Part shown: piece by piece, positions 6,273 to 29,812 of the stretch
Layout of the letters: each line of letters opens with the position of its first letter
Position numbering within the stretch: position 1 is the stretch's first letter
Assembly (NCBI GenBank): GCA_965209055.1
Contig: OZ242374.1
Coordinates: 4,768,001 to 4,832,000, forward strand
Source: Acidobacteriota bacterium
Lineage (GTDB): Bacteria; Acidobacteriota; UBA6911; RPQK01; JAJDTT01
DNA length: 64,000 nt
Direction of reading: 5' to 3'
Notes under the pieces: model-generated
What the model was told of the DNA's origin: nothing
Seen by the model: only the letters and a program-made list of their open reading frames with translations
Databases searched by the model: none
Translations under genes and position numbers: made by a program

Positions 6273-7229
6273 TCAATATCCTCTCGCCTTGTCGCAGACG
6301 AAACGGAGCGGCTCTCCGGCCAGATAGCGCCTCAGGTTCTCTTTGAAGATCTCGCGGCGGCGCTGCCACATCTGAGGAGAGTCGGCCGAGACGTGGGGCG
6401 AGATGATCACGTTGGGCAGATCCCAGAGCGGACTCTCCGGGGCCGGCGGCTCGGGGTCGGTGGCGTCCAGCGCCGCGCCCCCCAGGTGTCCCGACCGAAT
6501 CGCCTCGACCAGGGCGTCCTCGTCCACGATTCCCCCGCGCGAGACCACGATCAGGTGGGAGCCCCGCTTCAGATGGGCCAGGCGGCCGGCGTCGATCAGA
6601 CCACGCGTGGATTCCACCAGCGGCGCCGTCACCACGAACCAGTCGCTGATGGCCAGCATCTCGTCCAGGCGTTCCACGCCCCACACCTCCCGCACGCCGG
6701 GCGGAGGCTCCATCGGCACGACGTCCACGCCGTAAACCTCCATGTCGAATCCGGCGGCCCGTTGGGCCACGCCCTTTCCGATGTCCCCCATGGCCAGGAT
6801 CCCCAGGGTGGTGCCGGCCAGTTCGGTCATGGCGCCGAAGTACTTGATGGTGTCCCAGTTGCGGGCCCGCTGGTCTTCCAGCAGATCGGGGACCCGGTGG
6901 GCGAAAGCCAGGATCATGGCCAGGGCATGGTCCGCCATGGCGATGACGTGGGTTTCCCGGGCGTTGGTCATGACCACGTCGCTCTCGACGAGTCCCGGGG
7001 CGCGAGTGAGAATGTGGTCAAAGCCGATCCCGACAAAATGAAACCAGCGGAGCTTGCGGGCGGCCTCAAGGACTTCCTCCGTGATCAGACCGAACTGGAC
7101 CTCGGCGTCGGGAACCTCCCGAAGCTGCTCCTCCGGCGTATAGGCGGTTCGAAATTCCACCTCCGGGAAGATTTCCCGGAGTTCCTCAACGAATCCTGGT
7201 CCGATCCGGTGGGTGATGACGACTTTCAT
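6273..7229 (-). CDS. D-2-hydroxyacid dehydrogenase (NAD-binding)
   Basis: GILAMGDIG Rossmann variant, VSRGGIVDE, LDATDPEP, NVIISPHVS catalytic His. Confidence 0.92.
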   Translation of the reverse strand: MKVVITHRIGPGFVEELREIFPEVEFRTAYTPEEQLREVPDAEVQFGLITEEVLEAARKLRWFHFVGIGFDHILTRAPGLVESDVVMTNARETHVIAMADHALAMILAFAHRVPDLLEDQRARNWDTIKYFGAMTELAGTTLGILAMGDIGKGVAQRAAGFDMEVYGVDVVPMEPPPGVREVWGVERLDEMLAISDWFVVTAPLVESTRGLIDAGRLAHLKRGSHLIVVSRGGIVDEDALVEAIRSGHLGGAALDATDPEPPAPESPLWDLPNVIISPHVSADSPQMWQRRREIFKENLRRYLAGEPLRFVCDKARGY

Positions 7230-25594: not shown

Positions 25595-26455
25595 TTAACC
25601 GGCCGGCTCCAGAACGTGGGCGAATTCCTCCCGCCGGACCTGATCGCCGAACAGGACCGGGGCGCATCCTTCCAGGTCGTAGAGAAACATGGCTCGCGTG
25701 GCCTGATCCGGATCGATATCCCGAACCAGAAGCGCCTCTTCTCCCAGCCCGGTTTCTCCCACCACCTGCCCGTCCGGGGCCACGACCAGGCTGGTGCTGT
25801 TCTGATGCTCCTCGTAGCAGCAGTTGCAGGAAGCGACCCAAACCGTGTTCTCGGCCGCTCGAGCGACGATCAAGGAACGGTGAATCGGGATTTTCCAAGC
25901 GGCCGGGCGCGTGGTGTTGTTCTGAGGATGAAAGACCAGTTGGACTCCCTGGGAGACACACTCGCGCGTGGCCTCGGGAAACCGGAATCCCTCGAAGCAG
26001 ATGACGACCCCCACCCGGACTCCCCACAGCTCATAGGTCTCGAAGCGGGTCCCGGGGATATAGGCGGTGGCGTCCAGGGGAGTCAGCCGGACCTTGTGGT
26101 GGGCCCCCAGAATCTGGCCTTTTTCGGAAACGACCAGAGCCGAATTGTAGGGTTTCCCCAGCACCGGATCCTCCGGGTTGGGGATTTCGGTCCCCAGGAT
26201 GCAGGCCATTCCCAATTCTCCGCAGCGCTCGGCCACCTGCCGATGGAGCCGGGAAAGATGGTCCGCCGGCACCGGCCGCTGCGGGGGCGGCGGCGTCACG
26301 TCGACGCGGTAGCCGACGGTGTGAGTCTCGGGAAAGCAAAGGATCTGCACGCCCCGGGCCGCAGCCTCCTCCATGAACCGGAAGACGGTCCGGGCGTTGA
26401 TCTGAAGGTCGTCCACCTGCCTGGCCTGAGCCAGCCCAATCCGGATTGAAGCCAT
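25595..26455 (-). CDS. Carbon-nitrogen hydrolase (nitrilase family)
   Basis: IRIGLAQ, LCFPE (Glu), HHKVRL (Lys), VICFEG (Cys), ARAAEN; start at ATG 26455, not the ORF-track start. Confidence 0.9.
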   Translation of the reverse strand: MASIRIGLAQARQVDDLQINARTVFRFMEEAAARGVQILCFPETHTVGYRVDVTPPPPQRPVPADHLSRLHRQVAERCGELGMACILGTEIPNPEDPVLGKPYNSALVVSEKGQILGAHHKVRLTPLDATAYIPGTRFETYELWGVRVGVVICFEGFRFPEATRECVSQGVQLVFHPQNNTTRPAAWKIPIHRSLIVARAAENTVWVASCNCCYEEHQNSTSLVVAPDGQVVGETGLGEEALLVRDIDPDQATRAMFLYDLEGCAPVLFGDQVRREEFAHVLEPAG

Positions 26456-26542
26456 TGGCGTTTCCCCCCTTTTTCCTCGAATCCTACCACTTCTCTCCTC
26501 TTTGCTCTCCGAACGGTTTATTCTGAAAACCGGAGGGACAAC

Positions 26543-27295
26543 ATGAACAGGATCGATCTGACAGGAAAGAACGCGGTTGTTACCGGAGGGGCCCGTGGCA
26601 TCGGCTATGCCATTGCCCGGCGCCTCCTGGATTCGGGAGCAGCCTGCTGCATTTGGGACATCAATGAGGAGACCGCGGCGGCAGCGGCGGATCGACTCGG
26701 GGAAAAGGGAGCCTGCAGCTTCCGGACGGTCGATCTGACCCGGGCGGATCAGGTCGATGCCGTTGCCGAGAGCACCCGCAGCGATTTGGGGTCCATCGAC
26801 ATTCTGGTGAACAATGCCGGCGTCGCCGGCGCCACCAAGCCCCTCTGGGAGTATGACCCACAGGAGTGGCATTGGGTCGTCGAGGTCGACCTGTTCGGCG
26901 TCTATCACTGCTGCCGCTCGGTGGTCCCCATGATGCTGGACCGGGGCTGGGGCCGAATCGTGAGCATCGCCTCCATCGCCGGCAAGGAGGGGAACCCCAA
27001 CGCCTCCCACTACAGCTCCGCCAAGGCGGGTGTCATCGGCCTGACCAAGGCCCTGGGCAAGGAACTGGCCACCAGCGGAATCCTGGTGAATTGCGTGACC
27101 CCGGCCGTGATCGAGACCGACATGCTGAAACAGTTGACCCAGCAGCACATCGACTACATGCGCTCCAAGATCCCGATGGACCGCTTCGGAAAGACCGAAG
27201 AGGTGGCGGCGCTGGTGGCCTGGCTTTCGTCCCCGGACTGTTCGTTCAGCACCGGCGGCGTGTTCGATATCTCGGGCGGGCGGGCCACCTACTAG
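26543..27295 (+). CDS. SDR family NAD(P)-dependent oxidoreductase
   Basis: TGGARGIG, LVNNAG, YSSAK, DISGGRATY; GGAGG RBS. Confidence 0.93.
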   Translation: MNRIDLTGKNAVVTGGARGIGYAIARRLLDSGAACCIWDINEETAAAAADRLGEKGACSFRTVDLTRADQVDAVAESTRSDLGSIDILVNNAGVAGATKPLWEYDPQEWHWVVEVDLFGVYHCCRSVVPMMLDRGWGRIVSIASIAGKEGNPNASHYSSAKAGVIGLTKALGKELATSGILVNCVTPAVIETDMLKQLTQQHIDYMRSKIPMDRFGKTEEVAALVAWLSSPDCSFSTGGVFDISGGRATY

Positions 27296-27347
27296 CCAAG
27301 ACCGGGAAGGATCCGGCGGAGGGGGCCGTAGCGGCGGGAAATGCGAA

Positions 27348-27378
27348 GGGCCCCGGCCTGGGGTCAGGCGCGGGGCCC
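27348..27378. terminator. GC-rich hairpin between the convergent SDR gene and the micro-ORF/radical SAM unit
   Basis: GGGCCCCG-GCCTG-GGGT-CAGGC-G-CGGGGCCC, a 13-bp stem with one bulge; U-tract is weak. Confidence 0.5.
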
Positions 27379-27459
27379 AGAAAGGAATGGTTTCGGTGGC
27401 GTTGGGTCCCCTTCCCTCAGGAAACCCTCCTTGACACCACTTGACAAGAGTGGCTTCCG

Positions 27460-27504
27460 TTAGAAGGACGCCACCTCCGCCATACCATGTTTATCTATAT
27501 CCAC
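27460..27504 (-). CDS. Putative 14-aa micropeptide MDIDKHGMAEVASF within a structured RNA
   Basis: GTG...TAA preceded by AAAGGAGGTGAT (reverse complement of 27508-27519), a full anti-16S match, with GGAGG 7 nt before the start. Confidence 0.5.
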   Translation of the reverse strand: MDIDKHGMAEVASF

Positions 27505-27619
27505 TGAATCACCTCCTTTCCGGGCAATACCCTCACTTAGCAAGACCCCTCCTGCTCGGCTCCGTGGGCCGCCCAAGTCCCTGGAACCGCCACCACTCCG
27601 ATGCCGGAGCCTGTGGAAC

Positions 27620-28504
27620 TCAACAATGTTCGACCATAGGCCGGCCGCTTGTCAAATACCGGCCCGCAAACCCATCGATGCCGACTCCGACCCGCCCTGG
27701 GAGGATGTCCCGGGCCACCTGGACCATACGGTCCCGGTAGGCGAGACCGATGGATTCCTTGTCGACCTGAATCATCGCTCGAGGCAACGCCGTCCTCAGC
27801 GTCCGTGACCCGTCGGGAGATCCGTCTCCCTCGACGAAATGGTCGATCACGACCCGGTCCGCGGCGTCGCCGATTCGGCGAAAGAATCGCTCCGGATCCC
27901 GGATGGGCAGCAGCGGAGAAACGGTGATCACGGTGAAAAGGCCGAGTCGCCGGAGCCGGCAAGCAGCCTCGAAGCGGTGATCGACGGAGCTGGCGTGGCC
28001 GGGCAGGCCGGGGACGGCGTCGAGATCGGTCTCGATGGAAATATGGATCCGAAGCCGGCAGCGCCGTGAGAGTTCCAGGTAGAGGTCGGAGTAGCCGGTC
28101 ACCCGGTGGGAGTGGGTCTGAAGCACCAACAGGTCGGGCGGCTGCTCCAACATGGCCTCCAGGACGCTGTCGGTGACACGGTACCGGGATTCCTGGGGCA
28201 GAAATGGCTCGGTGGAACTGGACAGGAAGACTCCGAAACGCTCTCTGCAGCGGCGGGCCCAGTTCCTTTCCCGCCGCCAGTGCCGCCGATAGGAAGCGGC
28301 AGCGTTCTCCCGGACCTCCAGGAAACTCCCCCAGGAGCGTCCCCGGGTCAGAAAGAAATTGTGCCGGACGTAGCAACCGGCGCCGCAGAGTGAGTTGCCG
28401 AAACTGCAGCCCCGATAGGGCTGGAGCGAGTGGGAAGTGACGGTCTTCAGGTAGCCGCTGGTCCGGGTGAGGACGTTTCCCACCTCCCGCAGGGTGACAT
28501 CCAT
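27620..28504 (-). CDS. Radical SAM protein, spore-photoproduct-lyase-like (SplB/Rv2578c-like)
   Basis: LTRTSGYL..HSLQPYRGCSFGNSLCGAGCYV, FLSSSTEPF, ISIETD, TVSPLLP. Confidence 0.8.
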   Translation of the reverse strand: MDVTLREVGNVLTRTSGYLKTVTSHSLQPYRGCSFGNSLCGAGCYVRHNFFLTRGRSWGSFLEVRENAAASYRRHWRRERNWARRCRERFGVFLSSSTEPFLPQESRYRVTDSVLEAMLEQPPDLLVLQTHSHRVTGYSDLYLELSRRCRLRIHISIETDLDAVPGLPGHASSVDHRFEAACRLRRLGLFTVITVSPLLPIRDPERFFRRIGDAADRVVIDHFVEGDGSPDGSRTLRTALPRAMIQVDKESIGLAYRDRMVQVARDILPGRVGVGIDGFAGRYLTSGRPMVEHC

Positions 28505-28559: not shown

Positions 28560-29159
28560 TCAGTTGATCGTGCTCTGACCCGGCACCGGCAGATCGTCGG
28601 GGAGGACGTTGCGGTTCACGGCCTGGTCCAGATCGATGACATAGGTGTGGGGAGACTCCAGCAGAATCGGCGAATGGGTCGCCGTGACGATGCGCATGTT
28701 CTTCTGATCCACCAGTTCCATGAGCATCTTGAGCACGCGGCGCTGGTTCGACTGGGACAGGGCCATCTCCGGCTCGTCCAGCAGGAGCACCGTCCCTTCG
28801 GGGAGCTTGGGAAACGACTCCTGGAAGAGCGAGAGCATGATCTGGCCGTGGCTCGCGACATGGAGGAATTCCAGCATCTGCGGCTCGTCCTTGAAGAGGT
28901 GCAACTGATTGCGGGGGTTGTGCTGCTCGGCGTCGAAGAGGCGAACCTCCCCGATCTCCACGTCCCGGGTTTCGAGACGATACGAATAGTGCTGCAGTCG
29001 TTCACCCCTAAGCGCATGGTAGATGGAATGAAGCAGCGTCGACTTCCCCGATCCGTTCTCTCCGCTCAGCATGATGAGGGGATGACGCAGATCGACGATC
29101 ATGGGCATGTGGAAGTTCAGGTTCATGAATATGGGATGAGTGAGGATTTTCAGGTACAT
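28560..29159 (-). CDS. Stand-alone ABC/AAA-type ATPase
   Basis: GENGSGKST Walker A, SHGQ signature, LLLDEPE Walker B, ATHSP; start at ATG 29159. Confidence 0.85.
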   Translation of the reverse strand: MYLKILTHPIFMNLNFHMPMIVDLRHPLIMLSGENGSGKSTLLHSIYHALRGERLQHYSYRLETRDVEIGEVRLFDAEQHNPRNQLHLFKDEPQMLEFLHVASHGQIMLSLFQESFPKLPEGTVLLLDEPEMALSQSNQRRVLKMLMELVDQKNMRIVTATHSPILLESPHTYVIDLDQAVNRNVLPDDLPVPGQSTIN

Positions 29160-29344
29160 GGTTTGCTCGACTCGTGGGTGACGATTCCGGCGGTGGACCC
29201 CGCCCCCAGAACAGACCGGGGGCCCCATGTTAGGAAGCGCGCCGGGAACCGTCAAGGAACGATGGTCCACACAACCAGCCTTGTGAGGTGGACCCGAAGG
29301 ACTCCCGAATCGAAGGTTGCTTCCATCCCTCACGCAGGAAGGGA

Positions 29345-29812
29345 TCAATTTCCCAGCAGGAGAGACAAGCGATCTCTGTTTTCAGTCCTGAAGGGATTCA
29401 GGAACTCGACTCCACCCAGGCGCCGGCCATCTTGCAGATCTTCGGTCAGAATCGACGAGCAGCGAGCACTCCGCGCGGCGGCCCAGAGCATCGCGTCCCA
29501 GAATGACAGTCCGTGTTCCTCCGCTGCTTCCATGGCATCGACCAATGCCACGTCGTCCGCTGAGGCGATATCGAATAGTCCGAGCCAATCTCGCACGAAA
29601 GCGCCCGCGTCGGCCGGACTGAGCAACCCTTTGCGGGTGGTCGCCCGAAAGAATTCCGCCAGCGACTGGATCGTCAGCACGCAGTCGCACTTCGCCGCGT
29701 GGCCCACCAAATCGACGGCTTCATGGTGCCGGAGTCCGCTATCGCGATCGACCGCGTACACCAGGATGTTGGTGTCCAGCGAGAAGCGTCTCGGGACAGG
29801 CCTAACCCGCAA
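29345..29812 (-). CDS. vapC: PIN-domain (VapC-like) toxin; 5' end possibly disrupted
   Basis: FSLDTNILVYA, QSLAEF, LSFWDAMLWAAA, ILTEDLQDG, FLNPF. Confidence 0.85.
   Translation of the reverse strand: MRVRPVPRRFSLDTNILVYAVDRDSGLRHHEAVDLVGHAAKCDCVLTIQSLAEFFRATTRKGLLSPADAGAFVRDWLGLFDIASADDVALVDAMEAAEEHGLSFWDAMLWAAARSARCSSILTEDLQDGRRLGGVEFLNPFRTENRDRLSLLLGN

Follow-up and report, generated by a model that had tools for sequence, protein, structure and literature searches.

The question raised by this locus is what occupies the roughly 280 nt between two convergent genes in the genome of an Acidobacteriota bacterium (assembly GCA_965209055.1, contig OZ242374.1), and what role it might serve. The window, that is, the whole stretch of DNA analysed, comprises 64,000 nt of this contig (positions 4,768,001 to 4,832,000), and all coordinates given below are positions within it. 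An original prediction, made from the letters of the window, had proposed an unannotated, structured RNA on the minus strand, with a short open reading frame (mini-ORF) behind a Shine-Dalgarno (SD) sequence complementary to the complete 3' end of 16S rRNA, and a switch in which a downstream anti-SD occludes that site. The RNA, the mini-ORF and its unusual SD all proved to be genuine, and each sequence feature listed in that prediction was found at the coordinates given for it. The element is real, a point settled by its conservation across 51 genomes, and the minus strand of the region holds a stand-alone gene of its own, whose RNA is highly structured. This RNA represents a new structural variant of a known, functionally orphan kind of small RNA (sRNA).

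Conservation and distribution

A DNA search recovered the intergenic stretch from 24 of 61 related genomes, including all eight others of the same genus and five of six of a second genus. A covariance model (R1; 18 sequences, 280 positions) scored 281 bits in the window's own genome, and matched 29 of the 76 genomes of the order, once in each and over its full length. Single matches were also found in 34 of 137 genomes of the class and in 24 of 151 genomes sampled from the phylum, so that homologs, for which the original prediction had suggested a search, were recovered in all three samples; the ORF was kept in every one of 51. All 51 genomes with an R1 match carried one match each. By family, the distribution was either complete or nearly so in some (13/14, 5/5 and 6/6), and others had none (0/16). 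The motif pattern GGAGGTGRT-N25-55-GAGGTG-N9-TAR was detected in 17 of the 76 genomes of the order, in each case at a locus already known from R1, while a reversed control of the pattern gave 11 matches in 11 genomes. The 51 homologs were fitted to R1 to give alignment A3, which leans towards the structure of that model.

The ribosome-binding site and the mini-ORF

The SD stretch (GCCCGGAAAGGAGGUGAU / GCCCGGAAAGGAGGUGAUUCA) stands before the GUG of the mini-ORF. The genome's own 16S rRNA ends ...GGAUCACCUCCUUUCU, and GGAAAGGAGGUGAUUC is for that reason complementary to its last 16 nt, two G-U pairs included; the A that follows pairs with the U preceding those 16 nt, giving 17 nt in all. The full complementarity that had been proposed is thus confirmed against the 16S sequence of the same organism. 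The 13-mer at the core of the SD, GAAAGGAGGTGAT, occurs only twice in the 6.08-Mb genome, once within the RNA gene and once within that for 16S rRNA. The distance from SD to start codon is tightly held, at 7 nt in 47 of the 51 homologs and 8 nt in the other four, and 5 nt separate the GGAGGUG of the SD from the GUG.

The frame behind this site, GUG-MDIDKHGMAEVASF-UAA, is open in all homologs. Its start codon is GTG in 50 and TTG in one, ATG being absent. It has 14 codons in 48 homologs and 13, 15 and 16 codons in one each; the three variants (-3, +3 and +6 nt) all belong to one genus. The stop codon is of three kinds (TAA 25, TAG 24, TGA 2). Among the 45 distinct ORFs none has an internal stop in frame, compared with 32 and 39 of the 45 in the other two frames, and when alignment columns were shuffled a mean of 11.8 of 42 sequences acquired a stop, zero never being reached in 2000 shuffles.

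Constraint on the peptide is another matter. Entropy at the three codon positions of codons 2 to 9 was 1.26, 1.25 and 1.38, i.e. there is almost no codon periodicity, and the family-wide pN/pS was 0.85 vs 0.81 to 0.87 for the same bases read out of frame. A sub-group with the motif x-[SIL]-D-K-[HR]-G-[LM] showed synonymous third-position changes and a pN/pS of 0.56, a figure biased by the selection of the group on its motif. The only invariant residues of the peptide are E-V-A, and they simply spell out one strand (GAGGUGGCG) of the helix P5a described below. Comparison of the sequences shows that the open frame is under selection and that the peptide sequence is barely constrained.

The frame also ends in a fixed way. 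An internal SD-like GGAGGUG lies shortly before the stop codon, and the arrangement GAGGTG-N9-stop is found in 42 of the 51 homologs, the more relaxed RRGGTR-N9-stop in 50. In a ribosome whose A site holds the stop codon, the internal word would lie 6 nt upstream of the P-site codon, a gap close to the 5 nt between the initiating GGAGGUG and its GUG.

The features differ from those of type I toxin mRNAs, which encode hydrophobic membrane peptides of about 20 to 60 residues and show conserved long-range occlusion of the SD. Here the peptides have 13 to 16 residues and are hydrophilic and variable, in agreement with the original reading that the peptide is not of the hydrophobic, toxin-like type; the anti-SD helix is not conserved, and the predicted partners of the SD depend on lineage.

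Predicted structure

Folding of both strands, also named in the original prediction, set the minus strand apart (-104.2 kcal/mol, z = -3.45, none of 200 shuffles as good); the plus-strand fold was weaker (z = -2.28). A curated structure was laid on A3, consisting of nine nested helices (P1, P2, P3, P3a, P4, P5a, P5b, P6 and P8), a terminator stem and two pseudoknots (Table 1). Its paired columns held 88.4% paired cells, compared with 78.9% for shuffled partners and 38.5 to 50.9% for slid partners, and 48 of its 64 pairs were changed on both sides, against 33.0 with shuffled and 15 to 26 with slid partners. Covariation was 0.313, compared with 0.164 for shuffled partners (reached by none of 500) and 0.036 to 0.089 for slid ones, figures that are supportive rather than proof, since the shuffle controls ignore the kinship of the sequences and A3 was itself fitted to R1's structure.

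Helix P1 covaries between CCAC:GUGG, CCGC:GCGG and UCAC:GUGA. A pairing of the 5' CCA with the start codon, given by RNAalifold on 18 sequences, was dropped, as the 51-sequence alignment pairs CCAC with GUGG at RNA positions 28 to 31. The nested helix GGUGGCGU:ACGCCACC of the original prediction was recovered as P5a, and P6, which holds the stop codon in its loop, takes forms such as UCCUCC-UA-GGAGGA and CCCC-GUA-GGGG, among others.

The two pseudoknots link the 5' domain to the SD and to P5. In PK1, the P3a loop pairs with a UGCCC (CGCCC-type in the family) lying two bases upstream of the SD stretch; one family has GAGCG:CGCUC instead, and GAGCA:UGCUC and GAGACGA:UCGUCUC are found in one genome each. 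In PK2, the P4 loop (UUGGGU) pairs with ACCCAA directly 5' of the 3' strand of P5a, and covaries as GGGGUU:AACCCC, UGGGAU:AUCCCA and CUGGA:UCCAG. Taken alone, the pseudoknots were 84.5% paired vs 79.9% for shuffled partners, with 20 vs 7.5 double-change cells and a covariation of 0.137 vs 0.089, which none of 500 shuffles reached. A competitor of PK2, an outward extension of P8 (GGGU:ACCC), was 68% paired with almost no covariation. Covariation thus supports two pseudoknots that would clamp the ORF.

Promoter, terminator and RNA-library evidence

The gene is predicted to have a sigma-70-type promoter and an intrinsic terminator of its own, the promoter being placed where the upstream gene ends. 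The promoter-like pair of hexamers in the window predicts a start near 27619, and the pattern TTGAC[AT]-N16-19-NANN[AC]T was present within 60 nt upstream of 34 of the 51 homologous loci. The -10-like GAACAT agrees with TATAAT at only three of six positions, and was for this reason not called by a strict promoter scan. The 13-bp hairpin noticed in the original prediction is read as the terminator, with compensatory changes in its outer stem. A run of at least four T residues follows it in 33 of 50 homologs; the window's own tail, UUCGCAUUU, is too T-poor for a consensus scan.

The stretch is present in public sponge and marine metatranscriptomes, 17 of 24 among the matches listed being recorded as RNA. 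In four runs from four studies it was recovered from RNA libraries in the form of short contigs (208 to 268 nt), each contained whole within 27353 to 27619, and one of them (X4) ends at 27619, the predicted start. These contigs are assembled, and so testify to presence only, not to strand, ends or level. Their ends (27592 to 27619 and 27353 to 27395) differ between studies and therefore do not map the ends of the transcript. No RNA-library contig of the organism itself covered the flanking radical SAM-like and dehydrogenase genes, a lack of cover that is not counted as evidence. A further metatranscriptome contig (X7) covers part of the dehydrogenase gene at 27075-27273, with 18 differences in 199 nt, and its source in that sample is probably a related organism.

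Table 1. Positions of the RNA gene, its parts and its neighbours in the 64,000-nt window. Pair counts refer to the 51 sequences of A3.
Feature	Position	Strand	Remarks
RNA gene, ~280 nt	27620 to 27339	minus	full-length match to covariance model R1
-35 box TTGACA	27655 to 27650	minus	inside last codons of radical SAM-like gene
-10-like hexamer GAACAT	27631 to 27626	minus	18 nt past -35 box
5' domain (P1 to P4)	27616 to 27539	minus
P1	27613-27616 with 27590-27593	minus	covaries
P2	27605-27610 with 27595-27600	minus
P3	27583-27589 with 27557-27563	minus	outer part 98% paired
P3a	27578-27581 with 27566-27569	minus
PK1, P3a loop GGGCG with UGCCC	27570-27574 with 27522-27526	minus	90.4% paired
P4	27551-27556 with 27539-27544	minus	96.4% paired; 6/6 pairs changed on both sides
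PK2, P4 loop GGGGU with ACCCA	27545-27549 with 27403-27407	minus	79.7 to 84.7% paired
Extended SD GGAAAGGAGGUGAUUCA	27521 to 27505	minus	complementary to whole single-stranded 16S 3' tail
Mini-ORF	27504 to 27460	minus	14 codons + stop; open in 51/51 homologs
Internal SD-like GGAGGUG	27478 to 27472	minus	in ORF; 9 nt from its end to stop codon
Long-range helix P5	27483 to 27387	minus	P5a + P5b
P5a	27475-27468 with 27402-27395	minus	98.8% paired; 4/8 pairs with compensatory changes
P5b	27480-27483 with 27387-27390	minus	81% paired; 4/4 pairs changed on both sides
Hairpin P6	27468 to 27456	minus	by eye; stop codon in loop; two inner pairs counted, 82.8% paired
Hairpin P8	27419-27423 with 27408-27412	minus	inner 3 pairs 95.8% paired
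Anti-SD UCCUUUCUGGGC	27386 to 27375	minus	in 9/9 RNAs of the window's genus
Terminator hairpin (8 + 5 bp)	27378 to 27348	minus	outer stem 98% paired, 7/8 pairs changed on both sides; then T-poor tail
RNA-library contigs, assembled	27353-27619 (268 nt); 27372-27603; 27377-27592; 27395-27599		strand not shown
Short-chain dehydrogenase (SDR)	26543 to 27295	plus	Pfam adh_short, E = 3e-59
Radical SAM-like protein, 297 residues	27620 to 28513	minus	sub-threshold NCBIfam matches only

The anti-SD helix

The 12/12 pairing between SD and anti-SD on which the original prediction rested does exist in the window, UCCUUUCUGGGC pairing with GCCCGGAAAGGA with one G-U pair, but it is not a feature of the family. 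Its columns are 66% and 53% paired across the family, its covariation (0.089 vs 0.079 in shuffles) was reached by 40 of 500 shuffles, and its GCCC:GGGC pairs showed no covariation in the 51-sequence alignment. The helix alone is not beyond chance either, because, when the 282-nt RNA was put through 300 dinucleotide shuffles, an uninterrupted helix of at least 12 bp arose somewhere in 38% of them. In predicted folds of the 51 RNAs, the 3' linker was the partner of the SD only in the window's genus (9/9). The first octamer of the anti-SD, UCCUUUCU, repeats exactly the 8 nt with which the genome's 16S rRNA ends. The anti-SD looks like a genus-specific addition, a copy of the 16S tail, which may mask the SD in the free RNA.

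The competition between anti-SD and terminator that had been postulated is not supported. In the minimum free energy (MFE) fold of the window RNA the anti-SD helix and the full terminator form together, so that there is no need for competition even in the window's own genus, and the GCCC that had been paired with the terminator arm covaries instead with the P3a loop, as part of PK1.

Genomic context

The radical SAM-like gene upstream of the RNA gene, whose product had been suggested as a partner of the RNA, and the dehydrogenase gene downstream are its neighbours only in the nine loci of the window's genus, among 23 loci compared. In the second genus, an ABC-type ATPase lies upstream and a convergent HAD-like gene downstream, names taken by eye from N-terminal sequences and not from a family search. 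Clustering of all flanking frames of the 51 loci revealed no gene family common beyond one genus or family. Since the neighbours differ between genera, the RNA is not tied to the radical SAM gene, and the suggested partnership finds no support.

A Pfam search with the 297 residues of the upstream protein gave no match, and NCBIfam scores for radical SAM families were far beneath the cut-offs of 360 to 430 (mobile pair B, 51 bits; PA0069, 50; Rv2578c, 31). By eye it has a cysteine cluster C-x7-C-x3-C, not the usual radical SAM CxxxCxxC. Upstream of it, at 28560-29348 on the minus strand, a 262-residue P-loop ATPase (Pfam AAA_15, AAA_21 and SMC_N-type matches) is encoded, and this order is kept in all nine loci of the genus. 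On the other side, a 517-codon frame (25595-27148, minus strand) overlaps the dehydrogenase gene in antisense; the 3' two-thirds of this frame look like a separate, real gene, and the part that overlaps the dehydrogenase gene is probably an artefact of high GC content.

Several known classes of regulatory or housekeeping RNA could be set aside at this locus. A leader-peptide attenuator controls a downstream gene on the same strand, and is not what is found here, because the downstream gene is convergent in both the window's genus and the second genus, and flanks are unshared across families. ARAGORN detected nothing at the RNA locus, which lacks the tRNA-like domain and SD-less tag frame of tmRNA, and the genome's own tmRNA is located elsewhere (187.5 bits). 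Likewise, the genome's 6S RNA lies elsewhere (57.5 bits), and at the locus there was neither a match to RF00013 nor the rod with a central bubble, the fold being branched and pseudoknotted.

Relationship to Ms_IGR-5 and CC2171

In the Rfam scan that the original prediction had named, covering the window and seven homologs, no family reached its gathering cut-off. The novelty of the RNA is reduced all the same, because it is read as a distant, 5'-extended relative of Ms_IGR-5 (RF02471) and resembles CC2171 (RF01867).

The gathering cut-offs of these families are 45 bits (RF02471) and 75 bits (RF01867). The Ms_IGR-5 model gave no match in positions 26800-28200 of the window at E values up to 10, and no match above cut-off in the 76 genomes of the order or the 151 of the phylum sample. 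Its weak matches in the order (2 of 76 genomes) were at other loci. Near-threshold matches were found in 12 of the 151 genomes, the best at 43.8 and 42.5 bits. Eleven of the 12 genomes belong to families without an R1 match, and the twelfth carries a locus matched by both models: by R1 at G245:C3:99315-99562 (41 bits), and by RF02471 at G245:C3:99316-99516 (24.7 bits, E 0.0018). The RNA at this locus (L068) is without P1 to P3.

Nine of the near-threshold loci were fetched, and six had a recognisable SD and ORF. These are short forms, starting about 8 nt before the SD, and they use ATG, which the 51 long forms never do. In five of the six, the frame has 11 to 19 codons, ends E-V-x-x-x-stop and shows the GAGGUG-N9-stop geometry (four of the five frames were read by eye, the script calling only one). 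In the sixth, the stretch before the expected stop reads GAGGUGAAU with no stop after it, and a longer frame ends REVVAT-stop. The N-terminal halves of the short-form frames are unrelated. The remaining three loci showed no such SD/ORF motif.

Ms_IGR-5 shares with the window RNA an extended SD (GGAAGGAGGUGGUCC in the Rfam consensus). Its consensus, and likewise a locus in a Candidatus Methylomirabilis metagenome-assembled genome (MAG), also has GAG-GUG-N9-stop, pairing of GGUGAUUG with a 3' strand ...CAGUCACC, and a terminator. The same layout is found in five of the six short forms and in the window, where an extended SD is followed by GAGGUG 9 nt before the stop, a ...CACC 3' strand pairing with GGUG..., and a terminator. 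The differences lie upstream. Ms_IGR-5 starts about 8 nt before its SD and has no upstream domain, whereas the window RNA has an additional, covarying 5' domain of about 100 nt (P1 to P4) and two pseudoknots that tie this domain to the SD and to P5; RNA-library contigs extend as far as 27619. Because of the common geometry and the one locus matched by both models, the window RNA is read as a 5'-extended long form of the Ms_IGR-5 kind. The Methylomirabilis locus (L152:1663-1865, minus strand) is itself a clear Ms_IGR-5 match outside Actinobacteria (67.7 bits), and its predicted fold places the SD in a hairpin loop and the start codon in the stem of that hairpin.

The CC2171 model matched the same part of the RNA beneath its cut-off; the window reached 17.2 bits and four of seven homologs 21.6 to 26.9 bits, and when 401 nt of locus L047 were searched alone the E value was 0.0006. 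The CC2171 consensus begins GAAAGGAGGUGAUCCAGUG, followed by a long-range helix from early in the frame to just before the terminator. In the window, the 19-mer of CC2171 is present with one change (UUCA for UCCA), and the helix starts in mid-frame, not early in the frame. CC2171 also differs in having neither the GAGGUG-N9-stop rule nor the 5' domain, and in its peptides (MSHC...). A scan for the exact 19-mer, one genome per species, gave at least 80 loci in at least 120 stretches. Among the matches listed, these were mostly in Alphaproteobacteria, with a few in Burkholderiales, Bordetella, Phycisphaerales, Methylomirabilis and others, and 77 of 80 loci had a GTG-started frame of 12 to 27 codons. 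An Rfam search of 12 of the listed loci identified two of Caulobacteraceae as CC2171 (120 and 91 bits). R1, run on 26 of them, gave no significant match on those of Alphaproteobacteria, the best score (15.4 bits) being in Burkholderiales. CC2171 may be a more distant relative or a convergent analogue, and the likeness may thus be due to convergence and not to common descent.

Some of the 19-mer loci deserve mention in their own right. In a Burkholderiales MAG (L099:1630) and a Bordetella MAG (L105:4513) the 19-mer heads frames of 26 and 24 codons (MRDDQG... and MRDHQG..., respectively), each followed by a strong terminator and with no Rfam family at cut-off; RNAs of this kind may thus have another, unnamed branch in Betaproteobacteria. 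In a Phycisphaerales MAG (L097, about 6744-6762, minus strand) it heads a 12-codon frame followed by a terminator, which suggests that the design reaches Planctomycetota.

Published information on these RNAs is sparse. CC2171 is reported to have been confirmed by Northern blot in Methylorubrum, the authors of that work stating that a condition affecting it was never identified (bioRxiv 10.1101/2022.01.24.477521), and it appears without a function in two other reports (PMC5596092, PMC11701678). Expression of Ms_IGR-5 is recorded in Streptomyces transcriptomes (PMC8079986, PMC8780764). No functional study of CC2171/RF01867 or Ms_IGR-5/RF02471 was found in the literature covered, although supplements and subscription journals were outside its scope and a published function is possible.

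Proposed mechanism and alternative explanations

The reading favoured here, which we hold to be probable if only by a little, is that the RNA engages ribosomes and that translation unzips its core, so that it would serve as a sensor or sponge of free ribosomes, or would expose its 3' strand only while being translated. The RNA would present a ribosome-binding site able to pair with the whole free 3' tail of 16S rRNA, and a 30S subunit would bind there. The ribosome would start at the weak GUG 7 nt downstream and read the 14-codon frame, the peptide made being irrelevant. Codons 8 to 14 belong to the core formed by P5, P6 and PK2, and each passing ribosome would therefore have to unzip it: to reach the stop codon, P5 and P6 would need to be melted, and with them PK2, which is stacked beside P5. 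With the stop codon in the A site, the second GGAGGUG would lie 6 nt upstream of the P-site codon, and the 16S tail could pair again. The RNA would in this way alternate between two states, closed when free of ribosomes and open when held by one.

A number of points weigh against this reading. Ribosome binding, translation and every downstream effect are inferred, translation from sequence alone, and the proposed switch has no known output. In predicted folds, the SD core is mostly paired (mean unpaired probability 0.26 over the 51 RNAs), with partners that differ between lineages. A strict consensus scan of the window returned 0 promoters and 0 terminators, and the RNA-library contigs allow for DNA carry-over. 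The controls for covariation, as mentioned, take no account of relatedness, and assignment to the Ms_IGR-5 kind rests on sub-threshold scores and common geometry. Carriers are unevenly distributed: in 47 of the 76 genomes of the order R1 has no match, a gap that neither the Ms_IGR-5 model, with its 2 weak matches in 76, nor the motif pattern fills, and this argues against an essential housekeeping role.

The frame could also be taken at face value, the RNA being an ordinary small mRNA that acts through its product, a micropeptide of about 14 residues, with the structure only tuning stability and translation. A frame open in all 51 homologs behind a very strong SD is what such an mRNA would show, and the sub-group motif with its synonymous changes and low pN/pS points the same way, biased as that figure is by a group chosen on its motif. 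Across the family, however, pN/pS is that of the out-of-frame controls and codon periodicity is almost absent, the sole invariant residues derive from the P5a strand, and among the short forms of the phylum the frames vary from 11 to 19 codons, their N-terminal halves being unrelated. The frame leaves about 235 of the 280 nt uncovered, and this remainder covaries as helices and pseudoknots. We consider a functional micropeptide unlikely. It is similarly improbable that the RNA is purely non-coding, its SD-like stretch binding the 16S tail or some other partner, as a 5' stabiliser or sponge, and the frame being a by-product that is never read. An unconstrained peptide, the lack of ATG starts among the 51 long forms, and 16 to 17 nt of complementarity to 16S rRNA, far above the needs of initiation, would all suit an RNA of this type, but the short forms do use ATG. 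Nor would it account for the avoidance of stops in frame 0 only, for insertions and deletions in threes, for an SD-to-start spacing fixed at 7 to 8 nt, or for a stop codon, of three kinds, placed exactly 9 nt past a GAGGUG-type word in 50 of 51 long forms and in five of six short forms, the latter with frames of differing length.

Least probable of all, indeed very unlikely, is the model first put forward for this locus, in which the 3' anti-SD occludes the SD and competes with the terminator in a translation-coupled switch, perhaps with the radical SAM enzyme as a partner of the peptide or the RNA, and which could hold in this genus only. The 12-bp helix is present in the window and its genus, in MFE and centroid folds alike, and self-occlusion is plausible there, since the octamer of the anti-SD equals the 16S 3' end. 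Against this, the helix is unconserved outside the genus, does not covary and is not above chance, the MFE fold holds it together with a complete terminator so that competition is not needed, the GCCC concerned covaries with the P3a loop, and there is no common downstream gene on which read-through control could act, the radical SAM neighbour being confined to one genus. As a family-wide mechanism, the SD/terminator switch is refuted by the sequence comparison.

Known systems offer partial parallels. The dual-function sRNAs SgrS/SgrT, Spot 42/SpfP and RNAIII/hld have a conserved, active peptide and an RNA part that base-pairs with known targets. They resemble the window RNA, in which translation is presumed, in being small, terminated and structured, with a short frame; the window RNA differs in its unconstrained peptide and in having no known target. 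The STAB-SD of cryIIIA mRNA, an SD-like GAAAGGAGG, binds the 16S 3' end and protects the RNA, a case that can serve as an analogy only, as it has no start codon or frame. The other analogy is 6S RNA, a substrate mimic that captures RNA polymerase and is released when a short product is made. By extension from it, the RNA could be a structured decoy acting on the ribosome as 6S RNA does on RNA polymerase. It would capture 30S or 70S particles through the entire free 16S tail, and the ribosome so caught would release itself by translating a throw-away frame of 14 codons and thereby unzipping the pseudoknotted core of the decoy, a possibility that we regard as unlikely. In such a decoy, pairing with the 16S tail might also hide that tail from 3' exonucleases in starvation.

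Significance

Rfam has for years listed Ms_IGR-5 and CC2171 as orphan sRNAs that are expressed. Three things are new here: the long form, whose 5' domain covaries and which has two pseudoknots; the evidence for selection on an open frame rather than on a peptide; and a strict geometry, running from a full-tail SD to the start codon, GAGGUG, 9 nt and the stop, in at least three phyla. RNAs of this kind are carried by culturable organisms such as Streptomyces, Mycobacterium smegmatis, Caulobacter or Methylorubrum. If the decoy explanation were true, Ms_IGR-5 of Actinobacteria, perhaps CC2171 of Alphaproteobacteria, and the long form described here would be one ancient class of ribosome-titrating RNAs, through which the relative weight of SD-led and leaderless translation could be altered. 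The analysis turns an orphan sRNA into a concrete hypothesis, that its partner is the ribosome itself, which, if true, would add a new layer of global translation control.

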